A stretch of DNA of 51,330 nt, counting the filler, from Streblomastix strix (Eukaryota): the NCBI GenBank assembly GCA_008636045.1. It is 3 parts of 3 records of this genome, joined end to end, with 100 filler letters (N's around TTAATTAATTAA, not from the genome) between each part and the next. Parts side by side here need not be neighbours in the genome. Positions count along the whole stretch, not along the records: positions 17,147 to 34,190 come from SNRW01000734.1; 2 more parts are not named here. The stretch is one strand, 5' to 3'. A program made the position numbers and the translations under genes. The notes beneath the pieces were generated by a model. It saw only the letters and a list, made by a program, of their open reading frames with translations, made no database searches and had not been told where the DNA came from. Position 1 is the first letter of the stretch. Every line of letters starts with the position of its first letter. Shown piece after piece: positions 12,501 through 41,301 of this stretch.

Positions 12501-12586
<86 letters not shown>

Positions 12587-15500
12587 TTGTTTAATTATCT
12601 TTACTCACACTCGGACTATCTAAATCATTCCAAGAACTCTTCCATTATTCTTTTAATTATTGTGATTGGTTGTATAATGAATATTAATACTGTTATGGTT
12701 AGACAGTAGCTATATCCAGTGAGTTAATGCGTTGGTTTAGTGGAGAGCGTATAAGAGAAAGAATATCAGATTTATTTCTATGATGAGTAATTTTTAGACT
12801 TTAAGGTGTAACTTACAATTATTGTTATTATTAGCCTTTATTTTATTATAAAGACTATACATTTGAAAAAATATCAATTCTTTCTTTCTATTCAGGAGTT
12901 TGGTTATTTTTCATTTAATTAACCATTTCATCGAAAGCTTTTTATCTTTTTTATCTTATTTCAGTCTGATCATTCAAAAATTTCAAAAATCTCTGTGATG
13001 GTGTCAGTTTCTAATCAGTTTTCTATTTTTCTCCACCATCAGTATTATCATCTGATTTTATTAAAATCTATTATTATTACTTCTTATCATTCTGGTTCAT
13101 AATTTACTCTTATATTTATAATTATTGTTAAATAAGTTTATCTACTTTATTTTGGATTTTCGCTTGATTGAATATTTTCTGCTGTTATTCGATGAACAGT
13201 TTTCTTTTCTCTTCTTGATCAATAAGTGCTTTTGAAGATTAAATTAGTTCTTTTTCACTTTTTATTAATAATTAATTACTGTCTTATCGACTAATTAAAG
13301 ATATTTTAGGTTTGTCACTTTTAATGTTATCATTACTTAATTGTTATAACTAAGGTTGGGATGATGAAATTTCTAAAGATACGGCTTTGTTTTTAATTTG
13401 TGTTAGTTGAGGGGATGAACCAAATGTACTTTGAATTAGTGGAGGCGATTTGCTTTATAAAAGCTTTTAATGTTATAATTACTGCAATTAGTACTAATTG
13501 TATTATTGTGGAGATAGTAAGTTAAATTGGGATGATTGGTTGTAATTGTCTATTAAGCTATTGTAATTATCAATCTCGTTTCCAAATTCATCAAATTATA
13601 TCATGCGTTTCATGTGAGCCTGCATTGCATTATAATTAAAAAAGTTATAAAAATACAACACAAACAAATTTATAATTAATTAAATTATCATAAATATAAA
13701 TATTATTCATGAATTTTAAATATATCATTTATTATTTAAAAACATAATATATTTATTAAAAATTTTTATTAATTTTTTTATATTAAATACCTGCATTCCA
13801 GAAGTATAACTATTATTTCTTTAATGTTAAATATTTCTGCCAACAAGAATTGCAATCCCTAAATTATAATTAATATTATATTATACAAATTAAGAATTAT
13901 AATGAAATAATTCACGTAATTTAATTAATATTTAATAAAATTAATTTATAAAATAAAACTATCATTTATTCTATAATAATTTCAAACCTTCATTCAAATT
14001 AATAATCTTAGGAGTTTTAGGAGTAATGGTTGTTCCAACGGCAGAATTCTATTTTGAAGGTGTCAGAAATAATTAACTCTGCTATAATATTGATGGTGAT
14101 TGTGCATTACCAGCAACTTCTATATTGGTTGTTTTACTTGGTTGTGGACTCTTGGATACATTTTATTATAGCTGTTATTAATGCTAAGGTTTTTTAGGAC
14201 TATTTTAGTGTAGATTGTAGAATTATTACTATGAAATTGGACTTTAAGTTGGTGCAGGTGATTTAGAAGGTTAATTAGACAAAAATTATTGATTTTACTA
14301 CGTGGTTGGACTTAATGGTGAAAATAATTGATATTTTTATTGTGTGTATTGTTAGCTCGGAGATTGTGGTAGTAATAACGCTTGTTTCTGTTATGTTTAC
14401 AATATTTGCAATTAATGAGTAATTCTTTTCTGTTCATCTGTATGTTTGAGTGAGTTTTATGGTGAAATGGTTTGTTAGATAGATTTATCCTCTTTAGAAG
14501 GTGCTTGCTGTATTTAATACTCTGGCTCTGAAGTATATTGTAAAACATTGTGAAATAAAGAGTCAAAAGAAAATTAATATATTTATAAATATAACAAATA
14601 ATAAAAATTTAATTAATATATAAAAAAAAACTCATATATAAAAACTCATATACACACCTTTTACTCCCAAATATCTCTCAGCAGTTTCAAAATTCAAATA
14701 TCTGAATGAAGGATATTTTGCATATTTCTTCTTTTTATCCAAAGTTGATAATTTCAATGATTATTATAATTGTTATTATTACTAATCAATTCTGAAAAAT
14801 GGGTGAGCAAGAACTTCTTTAACTGTCTTGAAACGCTTGATTTGTAGTTCTTTGCTGATTTAATTGTTCTCTTTCTCTTTGTTTCTGATGGGAACTGGCA
14901 TACGAAGGAGGAAGTCATCATATTCAGTAGATAATTTGCGAACTATGAAATAATTAATTAATAAAAATGATAATCATTTGTAAAAATATATAAATTTTAT
15001 CTTTTAAATTAATAATAATAATGAATATATAATTTAAATCCTTACCTTATCCTTCGACTTAGCTCCCAATCATCAGAGTATGAATGATCTTTATCATCAA
15101 ATACAAATCATCCTCTACAATTTACTCAGTTGTAATATACCCAGTACTCTCTTCACTTTTCTATTTCTTATTATCTTTGCTCTTTTCACTCTCATTATCA
15201 GATTCATTATCATCATCGCTTTTATCAACTAATCCAACACCAATCAATTTGCATATCACATATTTTCTTTTCTTTTTGATATCTGGAACTTTATTTTATT
15301 AATCTTTATCCTTTAAATTATCAATCTTTTCAATATCTTCTTCTTCTTCGCATTTTAAAACAATATCTTTGGAATGGATGGGTCTATTGTTTGTATACAT
15401 AGATGAATGAAGTAAAATAATAAGAATATAATTAGATTAATATTAATTTATTTTTCAATTATAAATATATTATAAAACCTGTGAAAGAGGTTAGTGGAAT

Positions 15501-17046: not shown

Positions 17047-17146
17047 NNNNNNNNNNNNNNNNNNNNNNNNNNNNNNNNNNNNNNNNNNNNTTAATTAATT
17101 AANNNNNNNNNNNNNNNNNNNNNNNNNNNNNNNNNNNNNNNNNNNN
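17047..17146. other. Artificial contig linker (N44-TTAATTAATTAA-N44)
   Basis: 100-bp spacer with a six-frame stop cassette; flanking contigs are 17046 and 17044 bp. Confidence 0.97.
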
Positions 17147-17787: not shown

Positions 17788-18938
17788 TCAATCCCCAATA
17801 GCTTCGTTTTTCCCACCCCCAGAAGCATCTTTTTCTTTCTCCTTCTAATTCTCGCTCTCACCTTGCTTATATACCTGCTCATCCTCCGGAATTCCCTCAA
17901 GTGACGTCGGCGGGTGCTCCACGAAGTCGATAAAGCCGTCTTAGTACTATAAGCCATACACATTCGGTTCGTCTGGATTTTCTTCTTCGTCTTCTTCGGC
18001 TTCGTTTCCGTCGCCGCTTCCTTGGCCTTGGCTTTCTTCGCTCAGGGACCTCTCTTTGCTGAAGTCGGAGTTCTTGGACAGCACGGGCGAGGCGTTCGGT
18101 GAGAGATGCGGGTTTGTTGTGACTACTGGTTTAATTCCTTTGTTCTGCTCATTTTCAGCTTTTGTGGTGCTTAAGTGCTGCGCGAAAGACTCGCTGCCAA
18201 ACTTCTCAGGGACTAAAGGGGGTGGAGGCACTGGTGGAGTAGGTTTGTTGTATTTGGGTATTTTTGTGGGCCTCTTGCGCTAGTCACGGATGGACCCTTT
18301 TCTTATGAGAATTTCTCGGTATGCGCTGGGAATCCGCTGGGAGACGATGGAGGAGGTTGCGAAGGTGTGCCTACGTGGACGGCCGGTTTGGTCGAAGCCA
18401 CTGAGTGTTTTTGTGTTGATGTAGATAATTTGCTTGTACTGCGACGGGTGTGCGAAAGTTGAAGTGTCCTCCATCTGCAGCGATGACTTGGGGAGGTTGC
18501 TGTTTTGATCAAATTTCAGCTTTTGATATTGTATATGCTAATAGCTGCCAGTAAACATGGAACGTGACCGATTCTCACGAATTTGCTAGTCGATAAACAT
18601 TTCTTGTAAAGGTGGCGGAGCTGAAGAACAAAAGCAATTCGTGTTTGGATAATAAAAATAAAATCAGTAAGAAGTAATGCAAACCTATGGGAGGTATTCG
18701 CTAATTCGGAGAAGGTGAAGGGGATGGATGCAAATCATCAGCTTTAAAAAAAAATAAAAAAAAACGGATTAAAAGACGTATGAGTAAAATAAAATGTAAT
18801 ACAATTACTGTCTCGTCTATTAATTTCTGCGTAATTAAAAATACAAAATTACAGCCAAAATATAACAATAATAAAGCCAGAAAGTAAGAAATTCAAACCC
18901 TGCTCGGGCACGGTTGTCTTACTGTCTATATTTGTCAT
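17788..18938 (-). CDS. Hypothetical Pro/Ser-rich protein (about 3 exons), GC-rich relative to the background
   Basis: MTNIDSKTTVPEQ|ADDLHPSPSPSPNQRIPPI|APPPLQEMF... Two track ORFs (18280-18474, 17947-18231) join into one frame when TAG=Gln; ends ...GKNEAIGD-TGA. Confidence 0.7.
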
Positions 18939-19778
18939 TTTCAAGGTAGATCTAATATTTATATTAATAACGTATAAAAATTTTATAATAAAATGCAATA
19001 TAAACCGAATTTTTTGCTCGCTGGTCTCCAATCGTGAAAAATGAAAAATTAATATTTCGGATCTATTGAAATATCAAATGATTCGATTATTAAATTAATT
19101 TAAAATTAATTTTAAAAATGTTAAGTCAATCATTTTTTTTCTTTAAAACTATTTATTTTAGAATTTTTTTTTTAAATTTATTTACAGTTAAATAGTTTTA
19201 ATAAAATGTTGTTTATTATTTGTAATATTGTTATATGTTAATTTGAATAAATTGCAAAGTTACATTTTAATTATTTTAATAATTTTTTTTATTAATAATA
19301 TTTTTTGAATGTTGTTATTGTGTTATTATTATTTTTTTGTTAAGATATAAATTTTATTAGTTAATAATAAATATTTATCAAATATTAAATTTTTATTTAC
19401 TTTTTATTTGTTATACATAGAAATTTTTTAAAATGCTTAATTTGTTTCTTTTAATTATATATTTTATTAAATAATAATTATTCTAAATAAAAAATTTGAA
19501 AAGAATTAACATTATTTTAGATAAATTTTTATAATATGAAAACTTTTTCAGCTTCGTATGTTTGAAAAAAATTCATCTTGGGAAAATTGAAAAATACTTT
19601 CAATGTCAAGATTTTAAATAATGATTATGACAAATATATCATAGATATCGAAAATTTGAATAACTTAAATTTTATGACTTTTATATTTATATCGATAATT
19701 TGGGAAGATAAAAATTATTCCTCAACAAAAAAATTTACATGTTTATTTTTGAAAAATTTAACTTCATTTAAAAAAAAT

Positions 19779-19871
19779 CGCGGTTTGTAGGATTCGAACC
19801 TACGCGGGGAACCCCAATCGATACCTTGAAATTTTCAAGTCGATCTCCATAAACCACTCGGACAAAACCGC
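19779..19871 (-). tRNA. tRNA-Ser (anticodon TGA) with an 11-nt intron at position 37/38
   Basis: Acceptor GCGGTTT/AAACCGC plus G discriminator, D-arm GTCCGAGTGGTTTATGGAG, anticodon stem ATCGA/TCGAT with loop CT-TGA-A[AATTTCAAGGT]A, long variable arm GGGG-TT-CCCC, T-arm GTAGGTTCGAATCCTAC, downstream T-run Pol III terminator. Confidence 0.93.
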
Positions 19872-22091
19872 ATATCTTAGATGAATTATAGTTGGAGATT
19901 AAATCTATGAAAAATGAATTTTAATTATTTGTTACAATATTGTATTTCAATGAGAAAAATAATGTTAATAAATAAATATTTTTGAAAGTTTTTTAAATTA
20001 AAACTTCATTTCAAGTAATAAAAATTTAAATGTCAGAAAATATTTATAAGAAAATCGGTAAATCAACTCAAAAAAGTAAATTAATTGTTTAAAGATATTG
20101 ATTGTTAATAATAAATTGTTTATTTTATTATTAAAAATTTTTATTAAAAATATTAATCATTTATTAATGTAATTTTCTTCCTTTAACTATTCAAAGAAGA
20201 ATTCTTGATAACAATTCAACTGCTTCGGATTGTCTTCTTTATTTTTTTATAATTATAACTTTTCTTTGCTTCCTAAAAATATAGATCAAATTTTGATTTC
20301 AACGCTATCACAAATCATATATTTTTTTTATAATTATATTTTTTAGAAAATTAAATAAAATTATAATTAAACAAAAAAAACTTCTGGGATCTGTTAGATA
20401 ATCTCGGTTTTGTTCAAACATCTATACACCTTTAAGTTATATATAACTGTATTTATTAATATTTAAGATTTTTTTTTTAAAATTACTTCTTAATTAAAAA
20501 TTTATAATATCAATTTTTTTTGATTTTATTAATTAAATTCAATAAATATTTTATATGAACTAAAAATCATACTGAAAAAGAAAAATATATTACAAAAAGA
20601 ACATAAAATATATTTAGTAGAATTGGTTAAGCTGATATAAAGCCCAATTTATCTTTATGTAATCAATACTTGTTGTATTTTTCATAAATAATTTCAGATA
20701 TTCCATCAATCTTGCAGATCACAGTGAATCTTTATAATTAAAATAATTTGAATAATTCATAAATTAATAATTCAAAAAATTCAGTTAAAAATATTATTGG
20801 AATTAATCAATACAATAATTCTAAAATCAATTCATAAAATTTTAATATTATATTTAATAAATTAAATTTTTAAAACTATTAAAGGTTTTCAATTTTGAAA
20901 CTATAATAATCAATATCTTAGAAATAATTTTAACTTAGCTTAATTTATTAAATTATGATATCATTTATAATTTTAGTGTCAAAATTCAATTTTTAAGTTA
21001 TTCAATATATTCATCTAGAAATGCAATAGAATAAAAATTCAAAAATTTTAAGAGATTAATTAAAGAAACTAAAGAAATATTAAAACATTTCATTAAAGGT
21101 GGAAAATAGCAGTATGTTATACGATTTTTCAACAATAACAATTGAAAAATTTATCTAATGCTTTCTGACGGAATAATAAGATGATGGTTATTAATCGAAA
21201 TTGGAAGAGAAAGATATATCAAATCAATACCATGATATTGATGGATTGATATTAGAATAATCAACAAAATATGTTATCTCATTTTCTGCAACAGATTGCT
21301 AAGATTTCAGAGATCTCAAAGATGCAGTAATTCAAAAGTCGCAGAAAAACCAATTGATTCTAAAGATTGCATCATTGCAGTAAAATCACGAAAACATTAT
21401 ACATAATCGGTTAAGCAATTCAGAAAAGAGTTCTGCAGTTTCATTATAAACTGTAATAAGGAGTCTTTTGCAATAATTGCAATGGATAATTCATCAAAAG
21501 ACCATAATTTGCAAATTATGATTACAAAAAATCAACTATCCATTTAAGAATTTAAATCTCAATTTCTTAATTGAACCTTTTTTTTTAATATAGATTTTCT
21601 ACTCTTGGAGCATATTATATAGGTATTATCACTCCATTTTTAATATAATTTGCCGCATTCATTAGAAATTCTTCAAATGCATAATTATCAAAATTTTAAA
21701 TTGATATCTATGATTATTATACAAAAAATTTGTTCATATAATTCAAAATACCCGAAAGGCAAAAGAATTAAGAGGAAAAAAAATAACAACTTTTATTTTA
21801 TAAATATAATTAATAAATGAAAATAGTCAATAAAATTGAAGGTATCGATATTGTAAAAAATTCTTGAATTTTGAATTCTGTATTTCTAGCTCAAGATCCT
21901 CCATTTCATGTAGATGTAAAGCTCCTAATATTGCAATTAATATTAATTTAGACCATGAAAATTGAATATATTTTTAAATCACAAATGTTATTTCTAATGT
22001 ACTCATTACATTCGTGCTCTAAAGAGTATTTAACTACATTTTCATATTAAACAAAAATAATTTAATGCTCATTGTTTTTTGGCATATTTTT

Positions 22092-24041
22092 TCATCCAGC
22101 TCTAACCATTGTTCCTCCCATTTCTCCAATAACTTCTAAAGTTAGAACTTATGGATCAGGTGCATCATCAAAAGTAACTCTAACAATAGCATCACAAAGA
22201 TAATGCATCAATGGTGTTATTTATGCAGTTCTAGGATTTGGATGACTTCGTGTTGCACAAAATATTTGGTGATTATTCTGGTTCTCTCCTGGATAAAGTA
22301 ATGAATTTTCATTGATTTCAGGAGTTAATCTGCATTATAACTTTACTTGAATATTAGTTCATGCATCCATTTTAGATGAATTGTAGCCTCTCAAGAATGA
22401 ATCATCTGTAGCTATCTTTCATGTATGCATGAATTTATTTGGAAAATAAGCTTTCGTTGCTTTTCTTCCACTGAATAACGTTGTTTCATAGAATTTATTT
22501 TCTCTTTCTATTATTCCTGTACCAATTTTACATTAATAATCTTTTTCTGATTCGTTTATAGATTAGTTTTCAAATGTTAATAAATGATATAAATCTGATG
22601 GTACAGCAACTAAGTCTTAATCAACAAAACAATCAAACATTTAGCCACAAACCATTGGATTAAGTGAAGTGTAAGCTTCTGGTACTAGATGACACTAATC
22701 AATTATTAAATCAAACTTCTATAATAAAACAGGAAAGAACCAAGTAGGATATTAGTTCATTGCAAATGTCATATACATTGCTTTGATATTAGCAAATGAC
22801 ATTATACTCTATAAATTACCTCCATTTTCATCAAAACAATAGAAAGGAAAATATATGGATTTTATATGAATGATTAAAATAGGGAAGTTAATTATTTGTT
22901 GTGCTCAAGTTAGATCTTTAAAAGCATCTTCATTCTCAAAATTGAAACTTATAATGTTTATGTCTAATTTATCAAATTTTGCATTATTTATCTGTGAAAT
23001 CGTATTGGTTGGAAATTTTTCAGTGTTTGGTTTTCCATCCATATTAACAATTCTAACAGTATATATATTATATGCAACATCATCACGATTTCTTTGGAAT
23101 ATTATATCTGGCTTCTCTGGTGGAATCATTTAATATGCAAGATGTTCATTTGTCTCCATATTTGTCTAGTTTAATCATACAATCTTCAGATCTTATAATA
23201 AATCTTATGTCTGTAACTACAGATATAAAGCTGCATAATTACGTGCTAAACCAGGAAATGAATTGAAAATTGGATTCAATAGATTTAAATCAGGTACTCC
23301 TGAAAATGTTATTGGATATGGTATTTAATAATTGAATCTATCTGCTGTTGCACTGAATGCAGCTACTGGGATATCAATAAGTATTCCACAATGGCTTTTT
23401 CCAGCTGCTATTGATTCTAATGATGATACTCTTACAAAATTTTTGGTATATAAGTCAGATAATGAATTTGCTGAGATCACTGCTTACTCTCTTGCATAGA
23501 TTGATGTATCTCATAGTTTTGTATTATCTTTGCAAATAGCAAATTATTAAAATGGACCACAAGCAGCTGAATATCCATGCCAAAATTTGATATATTCTGA
23601 AGTATTATTTTGTTATTATGTATCGCCATCAGCTCCAGCTGCCATTGTTAGTAAATAGTTAAATGTATAATCAGCATTTCCTGTAAAATTAACTTTTTAT
23701 AATGCAGTTGCCGCTCCAGCTACAGCAGTTTAATCAGATTTATTAATTTATAAAGATAACCTACTTGCTGGAATCGTTATTTACCAATTAATCTAGCAAG
23801 TTTATACCATTGAACATATGCCACTTCATCTAGCACCTAATGGTGCATGGGTATATCTTTATCCATCATTCGATAATAGAGTAACTGGTTGATCAAAGAA
23901 CTAAACTCTACTTATAGAAAAACTTTATGGATGAATTGATGCAGTTCTTAAAACTTCATTCAATGCAGAATATGAAGAAATATAATCAGAATGTTATGCT
24001 TATGTGAGCATTTAAAGATAATTACTTGCAGAGAAACTCAT
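22092..24041 (-). pseudogene. Putative Polinton/PLV major capsid protein gene, copy 1 (649 codons, intronless, six internal TGA, no frameshift)
   Basis: MSFSASNYLQMLTQAQHSDY...FWHGYSAACGPFQQFAICKDNTKL*DTSIYAREQAVISANSL...MSFANIKAMYMTFAM...TPLMHYLCDAIVRVTFDDAPDPQVLTLEVIGEMGGTMVRAG*. Colinear with 34291-36000, which lies inside an element with a Polinton-type terminus. Capsid identity is inferred from size, beta-rich character and context. Confidence 0.6.
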
Positions 24042-24236
24042 TGTACTTGTATTTACTTATTTAAAAACTATCAATTTATATTTTTATTAATCAAAAATTT
24101 AAAATTGTTGATTATATTTATTTAGTTATATTTTATTTTATTAAATTTTAACCAGAAGCTTATATTCGTATTATCTTCACATTGATTCAATCCATTAGTT
24201 GCATATTTTTAATCTATTTTTTCTTTTTCTTTTATA

Positions 24237-25935
24237 TCACGATGTCCAAGCTTTGATGGTTGGAGACTTAACAGGATCAGCAATTAATTTCTTGAGTCTA
24301 TAAACAACGACATTGAACTGCGTTTCATTTGCTGAACTATAGCATATCTACATTAAAATTAAAAAGAAACATATATGATGAAAATATAATTGAATAAATA
24401 AGATTTTTTTAAAAAACTGTTTGATTGAAATTTATATAATCTTTTTTCTATTCGTATTTATCAATTTATTGATTCATACCCCAACTTTTAATATTGCTGG
24501 TATATTGATAACACAAACAGGTTGTTGTTGGAATGTGTGGAAGAAGAAAATGCGATGTGACTGAAATACAGATAAAAATATATATGAAATTTATTAAAAT
24601 GAATTGTTATTTATTTGTTAATTATATTTTAATAATCACACGATCATATCAACTTCCAAGCCTACAATGTCATTTACCGAAAATGATTTATTTCCGTTTC
24701 CATTTGTGGAGCTACCGTTCTAATAGATAGATCCACTTTAATTATAAATGAGTGAAAGAAGGAAAAAAGTATCCAAAAATAATAAACCTACTATCGTAAT
24801 CCAAGCTTTGTCTATTATTTCCCATGAAATTACTATTATTATGAGAAGGCTAATTATAATAATAATCATAATCCATAGTATTAATTAAAGAAAAAATAAT
24901 TTGAAAGATTGAATAAAATTAAAAGTATTTTAATGTAAAATAAATATACTTCAGCAACTCCAATAACTAAATAATAATAATAAAATGATATGAAAATAAA
25001 TATAATAATTAAATAAATAAAATATTCTCTCATTTTTATAGTAATTATTTTTCAATAATTATTTGTCTAACCCCATGAACCAGTTTTTTTCAATAGTTAA
25101 AATTAGCTGGAATATAAATATTAAATTAAAAACAAATCAAAATAATTTTATATTCATTTAAACTAAATAATTATTTCTATATTTCATACATTCTCCAAAT
25201 TCCTTCATTAAATACTTTATTAAGGAATATTGAACGTAGTGAAGAAGATGATATTGTTATTAAGTTTCCTACTTATGTAACACCTGTTGCTCCTGTTAGA
25301 TCGAAAGGGATTTATACTTATAAAATAATAATATATTAAAAGATATAGATAATAAAAAAATTAGATCAAAATATTAATTTGAAATAAAAAATATATTTCT
25401 AATGAAATTATATTAATGAAAAAAATATGTATTAATACATTTCATTCACATACTGAACTTTCCTTAATATTTTGAAATCCTGCATGCATTTGGAACTTAC
25501 TTTTCAGCGATGCTAATATAGTCATCAGATTCACTACTTGAACTGCTCTTCTCATCTGAATCTGAAGATGAATCAGAACTGGATTCATTACTTTCTATTT
25601 TATTGGAATTCTTCTTTTTTACTTCGTCTTCTATTCAAATAGAAAATGAATTAATAAATAAATAAATAAAATAGAAACAAACACAATATCTGGTGGAAAG
25701 GTTCACTACTCATTGATGCTTGTTCAGATGTCAGAGACAATGTAGAAGCCAATTAAGATTCAATACTTATTCCTCTCTCATGATCTTTGATTGCATGTTT
25801 CAGAGATCGAGCACTTTAAGCGAGTAAAGATGCAATACGTGTCTGACGTTCTTCACTAACACCAGACATATTCACACCAAGGGCTTCAAACACTTTCTAA
25901 GGATTCAATTGGACAGTTGCAAGAACTTCAGACAT
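24237..25935 (-). CDS. SPRY/B30.2-like domain protein, about 9 exons
   Basis: MSEVLATVQLNPQKVFEALG...; RSIFLNKVFNEGIWR, VIGVAE, GSIYQNG, SFSVNDIVGLEVDMISHRIFFF, QQPVCVINIP; ends KAWTS-TGA. Confidence 0.7.
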
Positions 25936-26026
25936 TCGAATGCAAGCAAAAACTGATAATAAAAGAAAAGTATAGAAGTAAAATTGATTTATTTTATATT
26001 GAATGATCGACTTAAGATAAATTTGT

Positions 26027-27545
26027 TCAGCTAATACATAGAATAGATCGTTAATTAACAGAAACAACAGCAAAGTAATATTAATATAAGATTGATAGTT
26101 TGAAATATTCTTTTGTACTTTTAAAAAAAAACTTAGATTGAAAATTATTTTTTGGGCTTGCATTAAAGAATATTTTGTGTTTTGATTTATAAAATTATTT
26201 ATTAATTTATTATTCAGAGTTTAATTTAATTATTATCGGATTTACTATCAAGTTGAGATTATTCTGGATTAGTTTTCATGCCATCAGAATTACTATTTAC
26301 TGATGATTATTATTCATTTTCAATTTGGTTGCTATTTGAATCATTATTATTTGATGATTGTTATTCTGAATTAGTATAATTATCATCAGATTTATTTATA
26401 ACTTTTTATTATTCTTCTTCTTTTTCAGTTTGGTTTTCATCAGATTAATTAATAGCTTTTTAATATTATTCAGTTGCATTATTATTATCATCATTATTAA
26501 TAGTTTTAATGAATGGTTAATCAAGAACAGCATACATTCTCAGTGATAAAAACGCAACAATCTGTACAATTGAAGAAGTTAAAGGAGAAATATCAACAAG
26601 AACATTTTAAATCATAGTTATAATACCAGTTAAAACATAATTAATACTTGAATGAATTTTTTTATTTTGTATTATTATTAGATTCTTTCTCAGAATTGGT
26701 AAGATGATTGTAATATGTTTATAATCCTCCATATGTAAGTAAGATTATAGAAAATGCTGCACCAACAAATTAAAGAATTTAGGTTGAGTTATTATTGCAA
26801 TAATCAAAGTATTGTGAAGTTTATTAATTATCTGCATTATTAACAAATGAGCATTATATAGGCTGAGCAAATGTTGAAATCATTGGTATTTGAAGTAAAT
26901 TAATTACAACTGTAGATAAAATCTTTGATATCAACTGTAGAGTTTTTGGAATATTGGTATTATTCTTATTGGTTATAAATATAGCTGTGCTCAAAGCTAT
27001 AATTCCAAAGATCATAAATGAAAATATGGATGTTGAAACTACTTATCTATTACCGTTAGGAATATATAATGATGGAACTAAATAAATACTAAAAAAAAAT
27101 AGATATTTGTGAATATTATAAATAAACAAATTATAAAGTTACAAAAAAGTAGTCCATAAATATAATAATAAATTGGTAAAACAATATGTATTTGAATACC
27201 TGATTTACTTAAAGACTTCATAAAATCCAATGAAATTGATATCAGATCTTTTTAATGGAAGGAAAAATAATTAAATTGTTTATAGAACAATCAATACAAT
27301 ATTCAACATTTTTGAAATTTGGTTTTAATTCTATTATATAGTGAGAATAATTTGTGATTGGTAAAATGATAATTTTAATAAATACAAAGAAAAAATAATA
27401 ACTGTTTAGTGAAAGAGAAGAAAGAAGAAATCCTGGAAAAGAAAACAAAATAAATTTAAAGAGTAATAACAAAAAGTTCATACTTTTTATCTTATTTAGG
27501 TTTTTTGTCTTTAGCTACAGTTGAATCTTTCTCAGAGTTCTTCAT
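26027..27545 (-). CDS. Multi-pass membrane protein (3 exons) with an N/Q/D-rich loop
   Basis: MKNSEKDSTVAKDKKPKQDK|KISSFLFH...; hydrophobic segments LNIVLIVLQTIQLFFLPL, SIFSFMIFGIIALSTAIFI, ILSTVVINLLQIPMISTF, FVGAAFSIILLTYGGL, SSIVQIVAFLSLRMYAVL. Confidence 0.6.
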
Positions 27546-28924
27546 TTTATATAAATTGAATTTGTCTACAAAGAAAATATAAAAAATAGAATTCAACAAC
27601 TATTATGAAAGGAATTTTAGAGTTTTGAAATATTAAATTTCAAAGTACGTTTAAAACATTAAATAATTATGAAACATAATTATTTATAATTTAATTGATA
27701 TATAATATCTCTAAAATTTAAATAAATATAACAAAGCATAATATTAATAATGTTAATACGATAGAAAAACTCGAAAAATTGAAATTTAAATATCCTTGTT
27801 ATTAGCAAAGTATATATCAGTGTCTTGATTCAAAAATTTAAATTTTTTTACAATCACTTCTATAAATAAGAATCAATTTTCTATTTCAAAGCTGAACTAA
27901 TAATTTCTTTTTGTAAATAAGAAAACAAAAGTAAAAATATATTTCGTTGGTAAAATGTACATAATTATTTATGAAGTTTATTGAAATACAATTGAAAGGG
28001 TTGGTGGAATGAATTAAATAACCCAAATTCAAGTAATTTTGAATATCAAATGGCATTTTTCATCTGGAAAAAGATCTTTCAATTTCGTTTTGTCAAAGAA
28101 ACCCTGAGTCTAGTATGCTCACCAAATTAATGCAAGTGCTACAAAGATGAGTAACTTATTCCCTCTATGAAAAATAGAAATTATTAGGGTTATTAAAAAA
28201 TAAAAATTAAATAGTTTTAAACAAACACCATCTGCTTCAATCCATCAACTACTGTTTACGACACGTCTACTGCAAATGGATGTTTCGGTTCGGAAGAGCA
28301 CATGTTTGGCAAATTCTGAAAAAGAAAAGAATGAAACAAAAAAATAAAGTCAAGAAATTGATAGTTTTCTAAATAATTATATACTTCAACAATTAAAAAA
28401 ATGAGCGTTTATTATTTAAGTTAAAATTTAAATATATTTGTAGTTACATGAAAAACGAACAAATTTATATTGTTTTAATTCACTAAGTATTAATGAAATT
28501 TCTGATAAATAAAATTTTAATTTTCTCATTTAAATAGAAGCATATATTTCGTAAAAATAATAAATTTTGTATTGCGAGTATAAAATATAACTGTTTATTG
28601 TAATATTAACTATTGTTTTGAATTTATTACGATTTTATTACGATGCTTCACGATCGGGCCCTTAATATATTAAAATTTTTAGATTTTAAATATAAAATTA
28701 CAAAATAATTGTAGTATTGCATTAGAATGACTAATTGGAACATTATATTTTTAATGTTATTAATAAAATATAAGCACAAGTAAAAAAATCAATTAATTTT
28801 ATAATTTTTTTGAATAGTTTCCATATAGAGATATGGAAAAGCAGAATAATATGAAATGTAAAACTGTTAAATTTATTAATTCAATGGGACGTTAATAAAT
28901 GATCAAAATTTCAATATCAATATC

Positions 28925-30260
28925 TGTAGTATATGATGGGGATTTATGCCCAACTACACGAAGTATTCAGTTTTTTAAAAAATCTCCACTCCAACATTTT
29001 ATAAGCTTTGACCTTACAATTTATAAAATTTTCTCACATCTGGCTAACGCATTCGTTCGAAAATATTATAGAATTGTTAGACCATCACTTACAAAATGAA
29101 TTATTATAAAAACTAATACCCTTAAAGTTACTGCATAAGTCACTTATAAATAATACTACTAATGTGCAAAATAAATAAAATATATCAACACCTTTATATA
29201 AAATAATTAAAATAAATAATTTGTAGGTTAAAAAAAGCTTTTTAAAAAATATCTCTGACAAATCACCTACATCAATTTATAATAATATATAAAACAAATA
29301 AAGGATATACATAATTTTTATAATAATTTTAGAATGGAGTTTTAACAAAAAATGTCATAGCCACAGACCGTTCCAGGTGTTCCGGGTGTTCTGAGTAAAA
29401 TAGGTTCTATGAAAAATGTCAGTCGATCCGTCAAAAAATTTTTCTTGATGAATGACTTATATAATTGGAATAAAATAATTTAATATATAATAAATGTAGT
29501 AATAAATAATAAAATTTATTGACAATACGGTTTCCAAAGTCGATAAAATAAAACTATAGGATTTTATAGGAAATTTAAATTTTCATTTTAAAAAACAATT
29601 TAACATTAACAATTTGTAAGAATAGTTCGAAAATAAAACTTTATCCTAATGGTATAAAATTTACTTGGATAATTTCACGAAATACCACTCTGAAAGAATA
29701 AAACAAACAATAAAGCCATAAGTAAAGCCAAACTAGGAACAATAGCCTAAGCAAATGGTAAATATATTTCGTAGTAAAATTTAAAACACAAATGATATAG
29801 TACAAGATATAAAAATAAAACCTTTAAAAAAATACTAAAGACCATATTTTTCACCAGAACTTGGAAGCTGGGAATTTGATTTTATTTTTGTAATGCACCA
29901 AACAATTAATAAAATTGTGTAATAATATTTGTTTTGCATTAATATTAATACCAAATTTTTAGTTGTATTTTCTTTAAAGGATAAAACAGCAAACGAACTA
30001 CTAAGATGTATAAAGTAGCTTATCAAAGACTAAAATGTTAATACCATACGTTCTGATGGTGAAGCGGCTTTAGGTAGCAAACAAATCAAGGAGTTTTTAA
30101 AAGAAAATAATATAATTTTTTTTTAATTCTTCACCTTTCATTAATAAAAATCGAGTTGTTGATTCAGTAATAAGAACAGTAAGAAACGCATTTGAAAATG
30201 ACTCTAAGCTAATGGCTAATAACAAATAAATATAGCAAATACATGGTAAAGTTGGTTAAT
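28925..30260 (+). mobile_element. Truncated end of a Polinton/Maverick: terminal repeat (~28925-29450) followed by an integrase remnant
   Basis: Begins TGTAGTATATGATGGGGATTTATGCCC; colinear with the reverse complement of 39530-40403, and the similarity stops at the (A/T)GTAGT terminus. Confidence 0.8.
29790..30245 (+). pseudogene. rve-family (retroviral-like) integrase core, frameshifted and truncated
   Basis: KPLKKYQRPYFSPELGSWEFDFIF...YLFCININTKFLVVFSLKDKTANELLRCI...NTIRSDGEAALGSKQIKEFLKENNI [frameshift in T-run 30116-30124] SSPFINKNRVVDSVIRTVRNAF. Confidence 0.8.
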
Positions 30261-31418
30261 GGGTAAAAAAAATAGCCTCTCCAAAAAGTCCAATTATATG
30301 TCCGGTGGGTCGTTTTTGAGTTATTAATAAAATAATGTTCTATGATATGAAACGCACAAATTGGCATAAAAATTTATAGACGCTAAATTGAAAGTTATCG
30401 AGAAATCTAACTTTTTTTTATTTTGCTTGAAATATTCACTTTAATGAATTAATGATTAAATATATATTAAATGTATTTAAATAAACATAAATAATTAAAT
30501 TAATAGTTTTAAATGAAAAATTATTTTAGATTGATGTTGTTTATTGATGGATTCAATAATCAAATTTTTTGGTGCATCATTCTTTTGATAGGTAATATAC
30601 CACTTCTCTTATTCTAAATATAATTTTTATTCATAAGCAAAAACAAATTGAAATAAATGACAATTACATCAAAATTATTTGTAGATCCTGCAGAATTATG
30701 ATGTAAATTACTGAACATTAAATTCCTTGTTTAACAAGTTCTCTTCTGTCAAACACTTCAAAAACACTAATAAATTTATAATTATATATTATTAATTTGT
30801 TTTACATAGAAAATATATTTATTAGCATAAACATGTCGAGAAAACCTGGCTGCAACTTAAAATTAACACGTTGACTCTCGCAATTTCATTAATTTATTAA
30901 ACATAGCATTTTTTCAACATTCACTTCATTTAATATTTAACTTGCATGTATAATACAATATTTTAAATATATTTATAATCGAACGCTTTTTTCATAAATT
31001 CTGCGATATCTCTGCTCCAAAAATAACTTAAGCATATTTGATAATATTTATTACCTTTCCCCCTGATATATATCAGTTTTCTAAAATATTGTAAATATTT
31101 AAACAATTAAATATGCCAAAATACCCGCATTTTTTTAACCAGGTCTTGAGCATATTGGATGGTATATTGCATTTAATTTACTTTTTTTGTGGGGCAGACC
31201 CCAAATTTTCATATTAACTTTTTTTGTTTCGCTCTGGAAACGTATTTCGCATTTTCTGAAATTGACAAACCGGACGGTTTTGGAAAGGCTATTATTTTTA
31301 CCCAATAACCAACGAAATTCAAATAATACATATATAATAAATACTTATATTTAATTATTGTTTAATTGTTTTTATTATAATTTTATTGATTATTAATTAT
31401 ATAAATATGATTGTGACT

Positions 31419-32007
31419 TCATTTTTTTTTCTTTTTTCCAGTGGCATCCTTTTTGCTATTTATTGCAACTCGTCGCTCATGCATAATTGGAGCTATAGCA
31501 TTAAGAAGTTAATTTTCTATTCAAATTTAAAAATAAATATAACATTAAATGATAATTAAAAAGAAAATTTGATGTACTGTTTCGAATATTCTCTTTAACA
31601 AAAGCTTTTACTTGTTTATCGCCTTCCAATCGTGCATATATTTATACACGCACCCTACCCTCCGAGAAAAAATCACGAGAATATTTCTTTTTTTCCTGGA
31701 GAAGAGCAAATAAGACTTTAAAAATAAAAATTTTAAAATTGTGAAAACTTCCACTCGTGTTTCTAATCCAACCTCTTTGCAAGCAGCAACAATCTCATTT
31801 ATTGTAGGGTTCTCAACAGCAATCTCTTTGTTCACTAATCTTCCTGTGGGGCACAAAAAATCAAGCAAAAAGAAAGAAAAAAAAAATCCACGCACCTTCG
31901 TGCTTCTTCTTAGTTGAATCTAAGTATGCAGGATATATGACATGCCAATGATATATCTCTGGAGCAGTTTTCAGCAAACCAGACTCTTCAGTTGTAATAA
32001 ATTCCAT
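31419..32007 (-). CDS. SRP19: Signal recognition particle 19 kDa protein (4 exons)
   Basis: WHVIYPAYLDSTKKKHEGRLVNKEIAVENPTINEI...EKKKYSRDFFSEGRVRVQI...KNQLLNAIA...GKKKKK*. Confidence 0.93.
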
Positions 32008-32314
32008 GTGATTATACAGCTTAATATAATGGTAATATTAAATACTTTAAACATCTATATTATTTGCAATATATATAATTCTAACTAGATCCGTGCGTTT
32101 GTGACAAACCGATAAGTCTTTTTTGATCTTGTCAGCCATTTGATTTTAGATATTTGATCTGAAAATATTTGTTAATGTACCATAAATATAATATTATTTA
32201 CTATTCGTTACGTTCAGTTTGTATATTATTCATATTGGTGTGAAATATAAATGGGCAAAGAATGTGTATGTAACTCTAATTATCAAAATAAAATACTTAC
32301 CATGAAGGGTATGT

Positions 32315-32530
32315 TCATGGAGGATTACTGGAGAAAACTTTGATATCACCATCAGCGCCTGCAGTCACAAGTATTGGATGTTGTGGATGAGCTACGATCT
32401 TGGTGATACTTTCATTGAATATTGGAGAAGAAGATGAAGAAGGCATTATGGGAGATGATATTAATATGGATGAAGGAGAAATAGAAGATTTCAATAATTA
32501 TTTCAATACTGATACAAATGACGATGCTTG
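32315..32530 (-). pseudogene. Orphan terminal WD40-repeat exon (gene fragment)
   Basis: NESITKIVAHPQHPILVTAGADGDIKVFSSNPP*; no upstream WD40 exons in the ~300 bp before the neighbouring kinase stop. Confidence 0.55.
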
Positions 32531-32848
32531 ATTGAAATTTTATTAAAAGAAAAGTCATTTATTATTATTTATTTAATTTTATAACATTTAGATAATAAAA
32601 TATTGAAATTTGAAAAATAAATTTACATTCCATTATTTTTATTTTTATTATAAATATTATAAAAAAGCTTAATAGAAAGAAGGAGAAATAACAGATATAT
32701 TAAACCTATCAATTAATCATTGTTAATAGAATAAACATGGTTAATTAAACATGCATTGTTGATTGCTTCTCTTTTTCTTTTATATCAGTTTGCTAATGTC
32801 ATTCATATTTTTTACAATTCTTTCAACAGTACACCATAAATTGCCATT

Positions 32849-34168
32849 TCATATCTTTGCCAAACAAGCAATTATTTCTGGAGTTTACATAATTTCATTG
32901 GTGGTTATTCTCTAACGTGGATCCTGAATAAATAAAAGGGAAAATAAAAAATAAATAATAAAATAATTTGAAATAATAATTATTTTATTTTCAACTTACC
33001 TTCACCAGCATCTTTAATATAAGTTTCCTCATGTTCTCTGGATAACGAAGTGGAAGTTGTCTTGGTTCGTTTTCAGCCACAAGTTTGAGGTTTGAAAGAA
33101 TGAAGTGATCTTCACCTTTATTCATGAATGGATGATATTGTGCAAGAAGTTCAAAAAGAATAATACCCAAGGCCCAGATATCTGACGAGAATCGTAACTC
33201 TAATTTATCTTTTAGCATACTTAATATATGATTATAAAGTAATTAATAAAACATATGATATTTTAAAAAAAATAGTTAATTAATGAATTGAAAATAAATA
33301 TTTAATAAAAGTTAATAACATAAATTTATTCTAAATATTTTTATTTCATACTCTTCCATTTTTAATCCTATGATGTTTTGCTACTATAATGGTTACAAGA
33401 GTTCAGGAGCTAAATATCGCCTGATCAATTATATATTATATTAGTAAAAAAAATTGTTAATAAATATAATAATAATTATTATTATTAAAAATAACCAAGA
33501 AAATCCGTTTGCAGTCGCATAAGTTGCTCCATTCTATAGCTTCCTAGCCAATCCAAAATCTCCTGGATAATTAAATCATGGATAAATAAATAAAATTAGA
33601 ATAAAATAATATTGAATAAACCAAGCTTGATTTTTCTGTCTCTTGATAACAAAACATTAGATGGTTTTAAATCTCCATGAATTATTCCATTAAAATGCAT
33701 CTGACTAATTGTAGATACCATCTGGGAAATAAAAGTCCAGGCATCCTAATCATTATATATATTGAATAGATTATAAATAAAATATAATAGTTTTAATAAT
33801 AAAAATACAAAAATTATTCTAATTTACCTCTTCAGAGATCATTTATCCACTTTTTTTCATATCTTCTATATATTAATGTAAGTCTCCACCTTCGCAATAT
33901 TCCATAATAAGAAACGCTTTAAATTCTTCTTCATCAACAAAGAAACCAAGAGGTTCGATTACATGAGAAAATGAATTTTGCGATTTCGATGATCTGTGAA
34001 ATATTTCATTAATTTCCAGAATAATTCTAACTTCACAATTAACCATATCTATTTATTTTGGTTTTCCATAATTCATCTCTTTTCGAGCCATTAGTTTACC
34101 TGATAGCTTTTCTTTCACGAGGCAGATTGTTCCAAAGCCACCAGAACCAATTTATCTCAAACATTGAA
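32849..34168 (-). CDS. NEK-like Ser/Thr protein kinase, 5' end cut by the contig edge
   Basis: IGSGGFGTICLV, MARKEM, FLIMEYCEGGDL, IIHGDLKPSNV, GDFGLAR, RYLAPE, SSDIWALGIILFELL, DPRQRITTNEIM; GT-AG introns; TGA stop. Confidence 0.9.
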
Positions 34169-34190
34169 CTATATTTAATATGAATAAAAA

Positions 34191-34290
34191 NNNNNNNNNN
34201 NNNNNNNNNNNNNNNNNNNNNNNNNNNNNNNNNNTTAATTAATTAANNNNNNNNNNNNNNNNNNNNNNNNNNNNNNNNNNNNNNNNNNNN
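34191..34290. other. Artificial contig linker (N44-TTAATTAATTAA-N44)
   Basis: Identical to the 17047-17146 linker. Confidence 0.97.
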
Positions 34291-36000
34291 ATCCCTGCAA
34301 ATATATTAGCCATATAATTAAATAGGTATGAAATTAGAGATAAGGATGAGGGTTAAATAAATGGAAGGGTTAATTTTAATGCAAAGGCTAACCCTATAAC
34401 AGATAATAACAAAGATATGTAATAAGTTAATTAAAAATATTATGGTAAAACTGCTGATGGTTCAGAACATAGTGAACACTTGTACTTTTGGCTTGGATTT
34501 TCTACAGCTTGCGGACCCTTTAATTAGTTTGCAATATTACGAGATGCTTAAAATTTATGAAATACAGCAATATATGCGAGAGAGTAAGCAGTTATTTGTT
34601 CAAATTCATTAACAGATTTATGCACTAATAATAGCGTTTGTTTCTCACCACTCGAGAGTATCATCGCTGGAAAACGGCATTGAGGTATTTTTTTGGATTT
34701 TCCACTTAGTGATATAGATAAAGCAGCAGAATGAGGTACAGAATATTTTTATATGATTCCATATGATATAATTGTTAGCGGTGTTTTAGATTTGAACTAA
34801 TAAAACCCAATTATTAACATATTCCCCGTACTGACAAGAAACTTTGCATCATTATACTTATAGCTATGGATGTAGGATTTCCTTTAGAATTTAAAAATTG
34901 TGTGGCTAAATAAATCAGATACCATTTTTTAATCGTTATCTGGTTAATGCAATGATTACACCCGAGAAACCAGATATTGTTTATCTATAAAGTGAAAATG
35001 AAGATGTTTTAATATTATATGAATAATATGCTGTTAAGCAAGTTAATATGTAAAATGTTCCGAATACTGCAAAACTACCATAAAATTCAATTAGTTAAAT
35101 ATCAGATGGTAAATTCGAAGAGCTAGAAATATAAAATGTATGTTTTAATATAGAAAATGAAGAAGCAATTATTGAGATGATAAAAACATAAAGAATAATA
35201 AATTTCCCTACACAAGTTATATGGTCTTAACCTTCAAATTTCCCCTTCAGTGGTTTTTAAGCTGTATCTGGTAGTATGTAAAGTATAATGTCATTTGCTA
35301 ATATAAAGGCACTATTTATGACATTTGCCATGCCATAATATTCTACTTGGTTATTCCCAGTACAATTTTATAACTTTAATTTGGTTATTGATTAAAATAT
35401 TCAAATACCATAACCGAATAAAGCACTGATCCAAACAACTAATAGCTAAATGTTTGATTTTTCTGTTGATTAAGGTGTTGAAAGTGCTCCATCAGACCTA
35501 TGCCATTCATTTACTTTTGAAAATGTAAATGTTGATGATAAAAGTATATTTATGGATATGTTGATGATGGAGGTGATGTAACATCTACTGCCAATATATT
35601 TTATAACACTACATTATTCAATGGAAGTAAAGCCACAAAAACATTATACCCAAACAAGTATATGCTAGCGTGAAAGCTGGCAACTGATAACTCTTTTATG
35701 CATGGCTATAAATCTTCAAAAACTGGTGCTAGGACAAATATATAAGTGATTTTAAACGGCTATTTGACAAATGGAATTATAGATACTACATAATTAAATC
35801 CATCACAGAATTTAAATGATTTAAAGCAATTTATTGGTATGCGAAGCTATCCAGATCCACATCAGGTTGCGTTAACACCTATCATGCACTATTTATGTGA
35901 AGCATTTATTCGTATAGCTTTTGAAGATAACCCAGACCCCCAAGTATTAAGCATGGATGTTATAGGAGAAATAGGAAGTTCATCAATTAGATGCGGTTGA
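34291..36000 (+). pseudogene. Putative major capsid protein gene, copy 2 (5'-truncated, four internal TGA seen, two frameshifts near 34930 and 35545)
   Basis: FWLGFSTACGPFNQFAILRDAQNL*NTAIYAREQAVICSNSL...MSFANIKALFMTFAM...TPIMHYLCEAFIRIAFEDNPDPQVLSMDVIGEIGSSSIRCG*; same stop position as copy 1. Confidence 0.6.
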
Positions 36001-36202
36001 TAGGATTAATGGGATTAAAATAATAAATATTATTTTTGATAAAATAATGGTTTCCATTCATTTGCAAATCTTCGATTCGCAAGCATATTTGATTGCTGCC
36101 TCTTAAATGGTTTTAAATATTGCATGCCAATTTATGTTTAATTTTTCAAGGGAATATATTAAAATCTTGTTAAATCCGTCCATTTATTTATTTTTAAAAT
36201 TA

Positions 36203-37393: not shown

Positions 37394-37983
37394 TTTAATT
37401 ATCCAAAAATAAGTCATATTATTCATTAACATAATAGTCTATGCAATTAATCAGATATTTAACCCCACTTTAGCCGTATTTATTATATTTTGTATTAAAT
37501 TATATTTATTCTACAGCTTCTTTTAATTCTCGGTATTTTACCCCAAAATCCCTGTTATCACATAATACCTTCATTAGTTCTGTATATTCTTTAATTATAT
37601 CGTCGATATGCTCATTGTTTCTTTTTTCAATCATTATATATACTTGTTATGGGTATTTATCAGGGTTATTTCCATATCTTTTTACCAACTTATAATATGG
37701 CTTATTATTTTTACTTAATGTATGTTAAATAAAAATTATCATAACATTAATAAATACGCTCTACATATTTTTCTTTTGGTATATTTTAGGGGTGATAGAG
37801 CAATTTACCTTTTACTATTTCAGTTTGTGAAAGCATTTTTATAGATAATAAAAATAATAAAAAATAAATTTGGATATAAAAATTTTCAAAAATCTTTATC
37901 TGTAATTTCTACCTCTTGTGCTTCACTTAAACGAATGAAGTCGCAATTTACTCGATAAAATTTTTTCAATAGAGTTATATTGC

Positions 37984-39534: not shown

Positions 39535-40403
39535 GAAATTTTTTTTGACAGATTGGGAGTCTAGCAGTACTTTTTTATGACAACTTTTTACCCGGTCCAC
39601 ATGATCCTCCTGGGGCAGTCCGTGGCTATGGCATTTTGCTTCAAAACTCATTGATAAAATTATTATAATAAATTATGTGTATTCATTATTTGTTATTATA
39701 TGGGCAATTTTCATCACAACAAATAGTCTATAAATTTTTTTGTATTTAAATTTAAAATAATTTTATTAGTAAAAGTCACAAATTATATATATATGTCAAA
39801 ACTGCCTGGACAAAAAATATTTTTTTGTTTAAAAATTTAAAAATTCAAATATTTTATTTTTTTTTTAAGAGTACGATATTTAACTAAATTTATATATAAT
39901 TAAATATAATTAACATTCACAATTTTAAAAATAGTAAACAAATTTAAATTGCATCATTGATTGTAAAGTCGAAAAAAAATTGATTTTAAAATATCTATTT
40001 TATGTCTAGGCTGTTTTGACATATATATAATTTGTGACTTTTACTACTAAAATTATTTTAAAATAATATATTAAAAAATTAATAGACTATTGGTTGTGAT
40101 GAAAAATGGCCATATATTATTATAAATTGATAGCTTGACTTATTGGAGATATTTTTTTTAAAAAGCTTTTTTAACCTACAAATTATTTATTTTAATTATT
40201 TTATGTAAAGGGTTGATATAGGGAATTTATTTTAATTATTTTATATATGAAATTTATGCTTCAACTTCAAGGGTATTAGTCTTTATAAAAAATCATGAAA
40301 TTCATTTTATAGGATAAAACTTATAAAATTGTTGGAGTGGAGATTTTTTTATAAAACTGAATACTTTTTGAAGTTGGGGCATAAATCCCCTACATTTACT
40401 ACT
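39530..40403 (-). repeat. Polinton terminal (inverted) repeat, interrupted by a MITE
   Basis: Reverse complement matches 28925-29450, e.g. AAAATCTCCACTCCAACA, TTTGTAGGTTAAAAAAGCTTTTTAAAAAA, ATG[C/T]CATAGCCAC[G/A]GAC. Confidence 0.8.
39702..40111. mobile_element. 410-bp MITE with ~120-bp TIRs and an ATAT target-site duplication
   Basis: GGGCAATTTTCATCACAAC...GTTGTGATGAAAAATGGCC; ATAT at 39698-39701 and 40112-40115; empty site at ~29281-29295. Confidence 0.85.
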
Positions 40404-41301
40404 TATATTAGGTTAAGTGATTAAATATGGTAATTTGAAATTAGTACAGTACATTTATAAAAGTTATTGAATGGATTTTAGTAAATTGATTTTATTTGTA
40501 AATATTTCACGAAAATAATTAGATTGGGAAGAAGAAAATATTATATTTAATCTCGAATGGGCAAAATTTCGCTTTTATTTTTTAGATCTGATGTTAATAG
40601 TTTGCTAGGATGCAAATATAATTTAAATGGAAATATTCTCATGTATGTGCAAAATTAGTCATAAAAATAAAATTTTTAAAGTAAGTAATAGTTCGTGAAT
40701 GTTAGCAGGTGTAATTTATATTTTAAAAATTTTTAAAAACAATTCTCATAAATAATTCAGTTCAAAATTAGTTATATATGAATTTATTTATTTGTAAAAT
40801 ATGACATAAAATTAGAAAATTATTTCAAAATAAATTAAAATTAACTTGCACCGTAGCAAGCAACAAAATAAAAAAAATCTGCATTTACAGCGAACGCATA
40901 AAAGGAATGCTTCAATAATGTTCAAATAAAATCAAATGATAAATATAATATAATATTAATTATAAAAAAAAATACTGAGTTATCAACATAGCGCAAAAGT
41001 TGCAAAATAAATAAAAAAATCAAAAATTGTTTTAAACTTTAATCAAAGAATAAAATTATTGAAATGTGTTCAAAATTAGTTAGAAATAAAGTATCAATAA
41101 TAAAATTACATTAAAAATAGGGAAAAAAGTGTAAAAAATTCTGCAGCAGTCTGTTTAGTAATTAGAGCTTATTTTCACGTAACCCCTGAGAATTTTATTA
41201 AAATATTAATAAAAATCAGTTTAAGTTGATAAAAAAATATATATATTTATAAAATGTATAAAAATTAAATTAATTACAGCACTGTAGTAAATCATCACAT
41301 T

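Follow-up and report, generated by a model that had tools for sequence, protein, structure and literature searches.

Previously, Bellas et al. (2023; PMC10120064) described a "Metamonada group" of capsid genes from endogenous viruses of the Maverick-Polinton type. The group was seeded by a gene from Trichomonas vaginalis (Pfam DUF4106). This is the only paper on viral relics of Streblomastix strix that we found in the literature on Streblomastix capsids, endogenous viruses and Polintons. The available part of the article reports that S. strix carries capsid-gene relics in which TAA and TAG encode glutamine. The organism accounts for 820 matches, which fall into one cluster (Tables S1 and S4 of that work). 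S. strix database proteins were matched to residue ~553 (Table S5), one of them being 562 amino acids (aa) long (Table S3), and the S. strix proteins share ~32% identity with contigs of T. vaginalis. Here, we describe a 51,330-nucleotide (nt) stretch of S. strix DNA, joined from three parts of assembly GCA_008636045.1 and called the window below. It contains two diverged copies of a gene for a ~650-aa protein, at 22092-24041 (copy 1) and 34291-36000 (copy 2). With a probability of about 0.88, we consider both to be dead major capsid genes whose product is predicted to adopt a double jelly-roll fold. Polinton-like DNA viruses that were related, but not the same, are likely to have left them in two separate integrations into the genome of an oxymonad that reads TAA and TAG as glutamine.

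The coordinates of all features are in Table 1. The initial annotation had recognised the frame of copy 1 without naming a strand. The frame is real and the gene lies on the minus strand. Translated with TAA and TAG as glutamine (genetic code table 6), the product begins MSFSASNYLQ and finishes RAG-TGA. The frame contains 34 TAA or TAG codons, six TGA codons and no frameshifts. Copy 1 aligns without gaps to an intact S. strix protein, P0159, and the two are 82.0% identical (532/649). Glutamine in P0159 faces 29 of the 34 TAA or TAG codons. The TGA codons face, in order along the gene, Gly, Trp, Trp, Arg, Trp and Arg. Hence, TGG has become TGA at three of seven Trp sites. A reading of the same interval on the plus strand with table 11 gave nothing but stops, and was discarded.

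Copy 2 is on the plus strand and is less complete. The frame first proposed for it is homologous to copy 1 but covers only residues 90-649, with two changes of frame and four internal TGA codons. Its three pieces lie at 34291-34920, 34931-35539 and 35569-35997, and are followed by a TGA. The two frameshifts are therefore near 34921-34930 and 35540-35568. There are 30 in-frame TAA or TAG codons, and TGG has changed to TGA at two of six Trp sites. Codons 1-89 are missing. The 5' end adjoins a block of N at 34191-34290, and no sequence resembling the missing 89 codons was found upstream of this block. Copy 2 is 80.3% identical to a second intact S. strix protein, P0163 (448/558).

The code used by the copies matches that of the surrounding DNA. 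The window has a G+C content of ~25% and, when read with table 11, hardly any open reading frames (ORFs). Assigning TAA and TAG to glutamine opens two cellular-looking ORFs of 2425 and 1387 codons, containing 206 and 162 in-frame TAA or TAG codons, respectively. These long cellular ORFs terminate at TGA. All of the named close protein relatives that we found belong to the oxymonad S. strix. As judged from the codon alignments, the window copies use the genetic code of their host.

The two copies had been described as diverged paralogues that align block by block, and this is borne out. In blastn, 22116-23585 matched 35976-34486 with 63.5% identity over 1516 nt (E 1.6e-46). In tblastn, the match comprised three pieces with 46-50% amino-acid identity (E 5e-132). 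At the protein level, 268 of 544 aligned residues are identical (49.3%). There is no third copy of the gene in the window. All six of the sequence blocks listed initially occur in both copies, although the variable residues had been miscounted in two of them. The common blocks are ACGPF, IYAREQAVI..NSL, PEKPDI, MSFANIKA..MTFAM, PSDL.H..TFEN and MHYLC.A..R..F.D.PDPQVL...VIGE.G. Those corrected are IYAREQAVI..NSL and PSDL.H..TFEN, with two variable residues in each. The copies also stop at the same position, as stated at the outset; both end R[AC]G-TGA, with 22092-22094 aligned to 35998-36000.

Many differences between the copies had been called synonymous or conservative, and past purifying selection had been proposed. 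Both statements agree with our codon counts. Across 542 aligned codon pairs, codon positions 1, 2 and 3 differ at 206, 148 and 278 sites. In the sense frame, the proportion of synonymous differences (pS) is 0.648 and the proportion of nonsynonymous differences (pN) is 0.319, giving a rough dN/dS of 0.28 after Jukes-Cantor correction. The sense-frame pN/pS of 0.49 (bootstrap 0.43-0.57) is lower than that of any other frame, the remainder being between 0.62 and 1.34. On these counts, much of the divergence between copy 1 and copy 2 is shown to have accrued under purifying selection. Both genes are opposed by antisense ORFs. Their third codon positions coincide with those of the sense frame, and so periodicity alone cannot decide which frame is coding. 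The antisense ORFs were rejected as genes; their pN/pS was 0.62-0.73, compared with 0.49 for the sense frame, and every database relative matches the sense frame. Such ORFs are a trap for gene callers wherever TGA is the sole stop codon.

We modelled the copy 1 product with AlphaFold2, with each TGA represented by X and an alignment of 42 rows as input. The model was predicted with middling confidence (mean predicted local distance difference test score, pLDDT, 72.4; predicted template modelling score 0.79). Foldseek returned 205 matches in the PDB at E<=0.001. All 22 of those listed are viral capsid, hexon or related double jelly-roll proteins, each with a probability of 1.0. They include proteins from PBCV-1, EhV-201, grouper iridovirus, mavirus, Sputnik and faustovirus, and the adenovirus hexon. 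In BFVD, 65 matches reached E<=0.001. The top matches were adomavirus LO7 and capsids of virophages and giant viruses, and one of the 50 listed is labelled as an unrelated BTB-domain protein. In VIA-align, the Z scores were 18.5 for faustovirus, 18.4 for PBCV-1, 17.7 for African swine fever virus (ASFV) p72, 16.3 for vaccinia D13, 14.0 for mavirus, 13.2 for Sputnik and 12.6 for PRD1 P3; 230 chains scored Z>=8. The alignments span model residues ~30-640, and so both barrels, with 327-389 residues aligned at 3.4-5.2 Å. Sequence identity to the structural matches is 6-10%. Two tandem eight-stranded jelly-roll barrels in one chain distinguish capsid proteins of the PRD1-adenovirus lineage, and the predicted structure has this arrangement. 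No cellular enzyme was among the matches listed. The model thus favours the double jelly-roll capsid fold put forward in the initial annotation. As a lead only, the nearest clusters by score to the ESM Atlas features of P0159 were Preaxostyla, Parabasalia, Preplasmiviricota Capsid_N, giant-virus capsid and Sputnik capsid.

Sequence searches place the copies in a large family. A HMMER search of 1.84 billion representatives found 189 matches at E<=0.001, with 158 at E<=1e-10 and 80 at E<=1e-30. The majority are fragments, and the set includes seven full-length proteins (599-696 aa, 24-30% identical) from metagenome contigs of 2.7-22 kb. A word-indexed protein search found 317 matches. All 120 of those listed are from S. 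strix, many being intact at 644-656 aa. The UniRef name "Major capsid protein" is attached to 12 of these 120, a database label whose basis is not visible. Precomputed Pfam assignments were lacking for 119 of the 120; the other is a fused 1057-aa gene model with an HNH domain (PF13392). Hence, none of the listed relatives has a capsid Pfam domain. Searching Pfam, PHROGs and the PDB with the copy 1 sequence also found nothing. A lone match of copy 1 to RuBisCO (E 0.19) was dismissed as chance. The initial description of the protein as novel and unannotated is therefore not supported; the family has more than 300 database relatives, some already named as above, and capsid relics of S. strix are already in print. 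There is no Pfam model for this family, and a curated one could name hundreds of orphan genes.

Termite-gut DNA contains further relatives. Short contigs from two studies carry the capsid gene at very high summed depth, which fits a highly repeated family. These contigs cover the copy 1 stretch in short pieces from many related copies and neither confirm nor correct the locus. Exact pieces of the stretch occur in one termite-gut run (X1), which may be the sample from which the sequence originated.

The seven full-length metagenome homologues (P0034, P0046, P0093, P0115, P0120, P0128 and P0141) differ from the window copies in that they use the standard code. A metagenome scan for relatives identified four loci (L001-L004), and the standard code also applies to L001 and L002. 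The L002 contig is 13.5 kb in length, with a G+C content of 31.5% and a compact, virus-like array of genes. After a 666-aa capsid gene come an ORF of 299 aa bearing a Walker A motif and three tandem paralogues of ~200 aa; there are also ORFs of 701 and 577 aa. The 577-aa ORF contains "Q.[IV]SG.KTF" repeats and so resembles an ORF downstream of copy 2 in the window (36203-37189). By BLASTP, the match between these two is confined to a 19-residue repeat motif (E 0.10). None of the 16 ORFs of L002 matched Pfam capsid, polymerase, ATPase or protease families. The sole Pfam match was KELK, on ORF 12334-12807, with a sub-cutoff E of 0.0078. A PDB sequence search with the Walker A ORF found nothing. 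A tblastn search of the window with all ORFs of L001-L004 detected only the capsid gene. Scans of IMG/VR with P0128 and P0115 gave no relative, and a word-indexed search with a profile of the metagenome relatives retrieved five close relatives only.

Double jelly-roll proteins do not always form the shell of a virus. The protein might instead be a scaffold similar to D13, or a domesticated cellular protein. The scaffold proteins of vaccinia (D13) and orf virus have Z scores of 15-16, near to those of true capsids, and our Pfam scans of the surroundings of the copies detected neither a penton nor an ATPase gene. Nevertheless, the top structural matches are shell proteins. Furthermore, S. strix carries many copies of the family, most of them broken, which is the pattern of a viral relic rather than of a host gene. 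In L002, a standard-code relative sits in a compact 13-kb array with the Walker A ORF directly after the capsid-like gene. We consequently regard a role outside the shell as very improbable, and favour a capsid protein.

Both window copies are pseudogenes, and neither should now be able to yield a capsid protein. TGA occurs at the same two Trp codons in both copies (23511-23513 and 34558-34560; 22419-22421 and 35671-35673). Taken with the absence of frameshifts over the 649 codons of copy 1, this coincidence could mean that both genes still work, with virus or host either reading through the in-frame TGA or translating it as Trp or selenocysteine. However, the remaining TGA codons of copy 1 face Gly and two Arg residues, those of copy 2 face Cys, Thr and others, and no single decoding fits. 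The long cellular ORFs stop at TGA. Copy 2 has its two frameshifts and lacks the first ~89 codons, and related termite-gut contigs from two runs have sense codons at 23828 and 23511. Given that three of seven and two of six Trp codons are affected, the chance of sharing two sites is ~0.14 by our own count. The shared sites are thus explained by independent TGG-to-TGA decay, and functional genes are the least probable of the alternatives considered.

We built a tree of 55 sequences. These were the two window copies, 46 others (45 from S. strix, and P0007) and the seven metagenome proteins; P0013 was left out because it is shorter than 440 aa. Copy 1 falls in a clade of eight with P0159, P0158, P0160 and P0198 (Shimodaira-Hasegawa-like approximate likelihood ratio test, SH-aLRT, 100). 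Copy 2 groups with P0163 and P0175 in a clade of three (SH-aLRT 100), on a different major branch (97). The intact proteins P0159 and P0163 are 65.6% identical to each other. The notion of two distinct subfamilies therefore holds; the copies occupy separate clades, and each is far closer to its own relative (82.0% and 80.3%) than to the other copy (49.3%).

Because the copies are in different clades, and have closer relatives elsewhere, they are likely to be separate insertions from two virus lineages, rather than products of a local duplication. On the same sequence comparisons, each copy would have drifted by about 18-20% after descent from its lineage. The alternative is that the copies are local paralogues, duplicated within the locus and diverged in place. 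They are 10 kb apart in window coordinates and inverted with respect to each other, and a second inverted pair (28919-29377 and 39609-40409) is in the same region. Conversely, the copies resemble different intact S. strix proteins much more than each other, they are not sisters in the tree and their clades are well supported. The flanks of the copies have no other similarity. Hence, we consider duplication at the locus to be scarcely probable and retain separate insertion.

The initial annotation placed the genes in a Polinton-type element. Our results do not sustain this. Six-frame Pfam scans covered 19000-22092, 24042-29500, 29400-34190 and 36001-41400. No polymerase, ATPase or protease was detected in these surroundings, and the only related match was a single sub-threshold rve integrase core. 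In particular, neither the ORF scans nor the six-frame scans contained a protein-primed polymerase (DNA_pol_B_2) or any other polymerase. The first two intervals, which flank copy 1, were blank, leaving that copy isolated. The rve core was found again in the six-frame scan (E 6e-4). It belongs to some integrating element and may or may not be connected with either capsid copy. Directly upstream of the integrase ORF is one arm of the inverted pair. The two arms match in three blastn pieces with 79-86% identity, and in short translated matches. This is the only inverted pair, and it encloses copy 2 and cellular genes. The scan of 36001-41400 was blank, with no integrase core detected beside the arm at 39609-40409. 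The arms could be terminal repeats, or else both could be left over from an integrase-bearing element.

The situation at copy 2 is different, since this copy alone has kept linked, virus-type ORFs. The first ORF, of 328 codons, is convergent with copy 2. Its product carries "Q.V.G.K.F" repeats of a fibre-like kind, and its C-terminal part is beta-rich. Its S. strix homologues are P0277-P0279 (E 2e-107 to 6e-25). It has no Pfam match, and an AlphaFold model from a 4-row alignment was unusable (pLDDT 28.7). The second ORF, of 304 codons, also has no Pfam match. Residues 109-196 of P0279 match 36616-36359, and its N-terminal part matches the second ORF (Table 1); one gene model thus spans parts of both ORFs. 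The locus tag of P0279 (EZS28_024121) is adjacent to that of the capsid gene for P0159 (EZS28_024122), and each gene is listed on a 4946-nt S. strix contig. This adjacency suggests that the capsid gene and the two downstream ORFs travel together, and that copy 2 is part of a larger viral relic. The ORFs are likely to be the second and third genes of that relic, which would extend over at least 34.3-38.8 kb.

Table 1. Features of the S. strix window, and of the related metagenome contig L002 (last row, in contig coordinates).
Feature	Position	Strand	Description
Capsid-protein pseudogene, copy 1	22092..24041	-	Single frame, 649 codons and terminal TGA (22092-22094)
In-frame TGA, copy 1	23826-23828, 23511-23513, 23175-23177, 22905-22907, 22419-22421, 22359-22361	-	Codon count
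Capsid-protein pseudogene, copy 2	34291..36000	+	5'-truncated or masked; three frame pieces (tblastn with copy 1, codon count); terminal TGA 35998-36000
Internal TGA, copy 2	34558-34560, 34681-34683, 34732-34734, 35671-35673	+	Codon count
Antisense ORF, 340 codons	22870-23892	+	Opposite copy 1; longer than any sense piece
Antisense ORF, 498 codons	33750-35246	-	Opposite copy 2; longer than any sense piece
ORF, 328 codons	36203..37189	-	Convergent with copy 2; open between two TGA
ORF, 304 codons	37923..38837	-	P0279 residues 1-115 match 38471-38103, 60% identity, E 6e-43
Weak rve-type integrase core	ORF 29452..30162; core residues 139-221 (~29866-30114)	+	Pfam rve E 3.7e-5, 24.4 bits against a 32.6-bit cutoff
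Repeat arm	28919..29377	+	Directly upstream of integrase ORF; inverted partner 39609-40409
Inverted partner of 28919-29377	39609..40409	-	~410-nt insertion
SRP19	~31627-31847	-	Two frames, 28.1 and 24.3 bits; cellular gene
Protein kinase	32991-34190	-	Several frames (introns or decay); Pkinase E 3.7e-18; abuts N block beside copy 2
Protein kinase, paralogue of 32991-34190	42981-44940	-	Several frames, as a result of introns or decay
tRNA-Phe (GAA)	19778-19872	-	95 nt, exceeds a plain tRNA; may contain an intron
Two very long low-complexity ORFs	1688-8965 and 9543-13706	-	Gln/Lys/Glu-rich; open solely under table 6
L002 features	4464-5363, 5380-7293, 10073-11806		Walker A ORF after capsid gene, tandem ~200-aa paralogues, 577-aa fibre-like ORF

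The two very long ORFs have no convincing Pfam match, and no polymerase was found over their full extent. The G+C content rises to ~41% at 17850-18620, compared with 16-34% elsewhere in the window. A 291-codon ORF on the minus strand of this island (17788-18663) gave a blank Pfam scan. The N blocks at 17047-17146 and 34191-34290 have an identical layout of 44 N, 12 bases and 44 N. A diverged repeat pair at 41020-41625 and 48700-49515, with 40-49% translated identity, is unrelated to the capsid genes.

Several of our observations weigh against two polinton-like virus relics. None of 42 aligned family members matched Pfam DUF4106 (PF13388), Capsid_NCLDV, Capsid_N or any other capsid model (E<=10). 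Confidence in the predicted fold is middling, with stretches 100-140 and 490-530 below a pLDDT of 60, and the Foldseek TM-scores are modest, at 0.33-0.58. No penton, packaging ATPase or protease was found by Pfam scans within 3-5 kb of either copy, the penton being poorly covered by Pfam. Cellular genes, for SRP19 and a kinase, separate the integrase remnant from copy 2. The tree came from a quick IQ-TREE search rather than a careful one. Finally, dS is close to saturation (pS 0.65), which leaves the dN/dS rough.

We nevertheless favour the interpretation given at the outset. The intact protein would have formed trimeric, pseudo-hexagonal capsomers, tiling an icosahedral shell around a double-stranded DNA genome of ~15-25 kb. 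After integration, both copies would have decayed neutrally in an AT-rich genome, with Trp TGG-to-TGA changes among the damage, and most of the neighbouring viral genes would have been lost. Relics of capsid genes attest to repeated invasion of a protist genome by small DNA viruses. In this case, the copies would represent two lineages of a single capsid family, lying within 10 kb of each other in window coordinates, and both have decayed.

How do the copies compare with described systems? The closest are intact S. strix proteins of the same family, EZS28_024122 (P0159), EZS28_011740 (P0158) and EZS28_014178 (P0163). These have a length of 644-656 aa and use the same code, but their gene models are intact whereas the window copies are broken. 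More distantly, the capsids of faustovirus, PBCV-1 (Vp54), ASFV (p72), mavirus and Sputnik are alike in predicted fold (Z 18.5-13.2). Conversely, their sequences are 6-9% identical to copy 1, for which there is no sequence match to a PDB chain, Capsid_NCLDV or Capsid_N.

The Metamonada group of Bellas et al. (2023; PMC10120064), as presented in the available part of that article, resembles the window copies in the kind of relic, the type of host, the use of TAA and TAG for glutamine and a double jelly-roll similar to capsids of virophages and giant viruses. Hence, this kind of feature is already known for this type of host; the novelty is modest, and little is added to what that work reports for S. 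strix. There are also differences. The S. strix proteins of the Metamonada group look like a family of ~560 aa, compared with ~650 aa for the window family, in which none of the 42 members matches DUF4106. Five locus tags of the window family did not occur in the available part of the supplement to that work. The printed 562-aa S. strix representative has no clear identity to copy 1 when the two are compared by eye only. By length, and by the lack of a DUF4106 match, the window's family looks like a different one from that of the printed representative.

The window family may therefore be a second capsid lineage in oxymonads. More speculatively, the ~650-aa protein could mark a second, sequence-distinct lineage of oxymonad polinton-like viruses, apart from the DUF4106 type, and forming an undescribed clade that crossed between hosts with different codes. 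We consider this possible rather than probable. Comparison with the standard-code metagenome relatives could reveal how a virus lineage adapts to stop-codon reassignment in its host.

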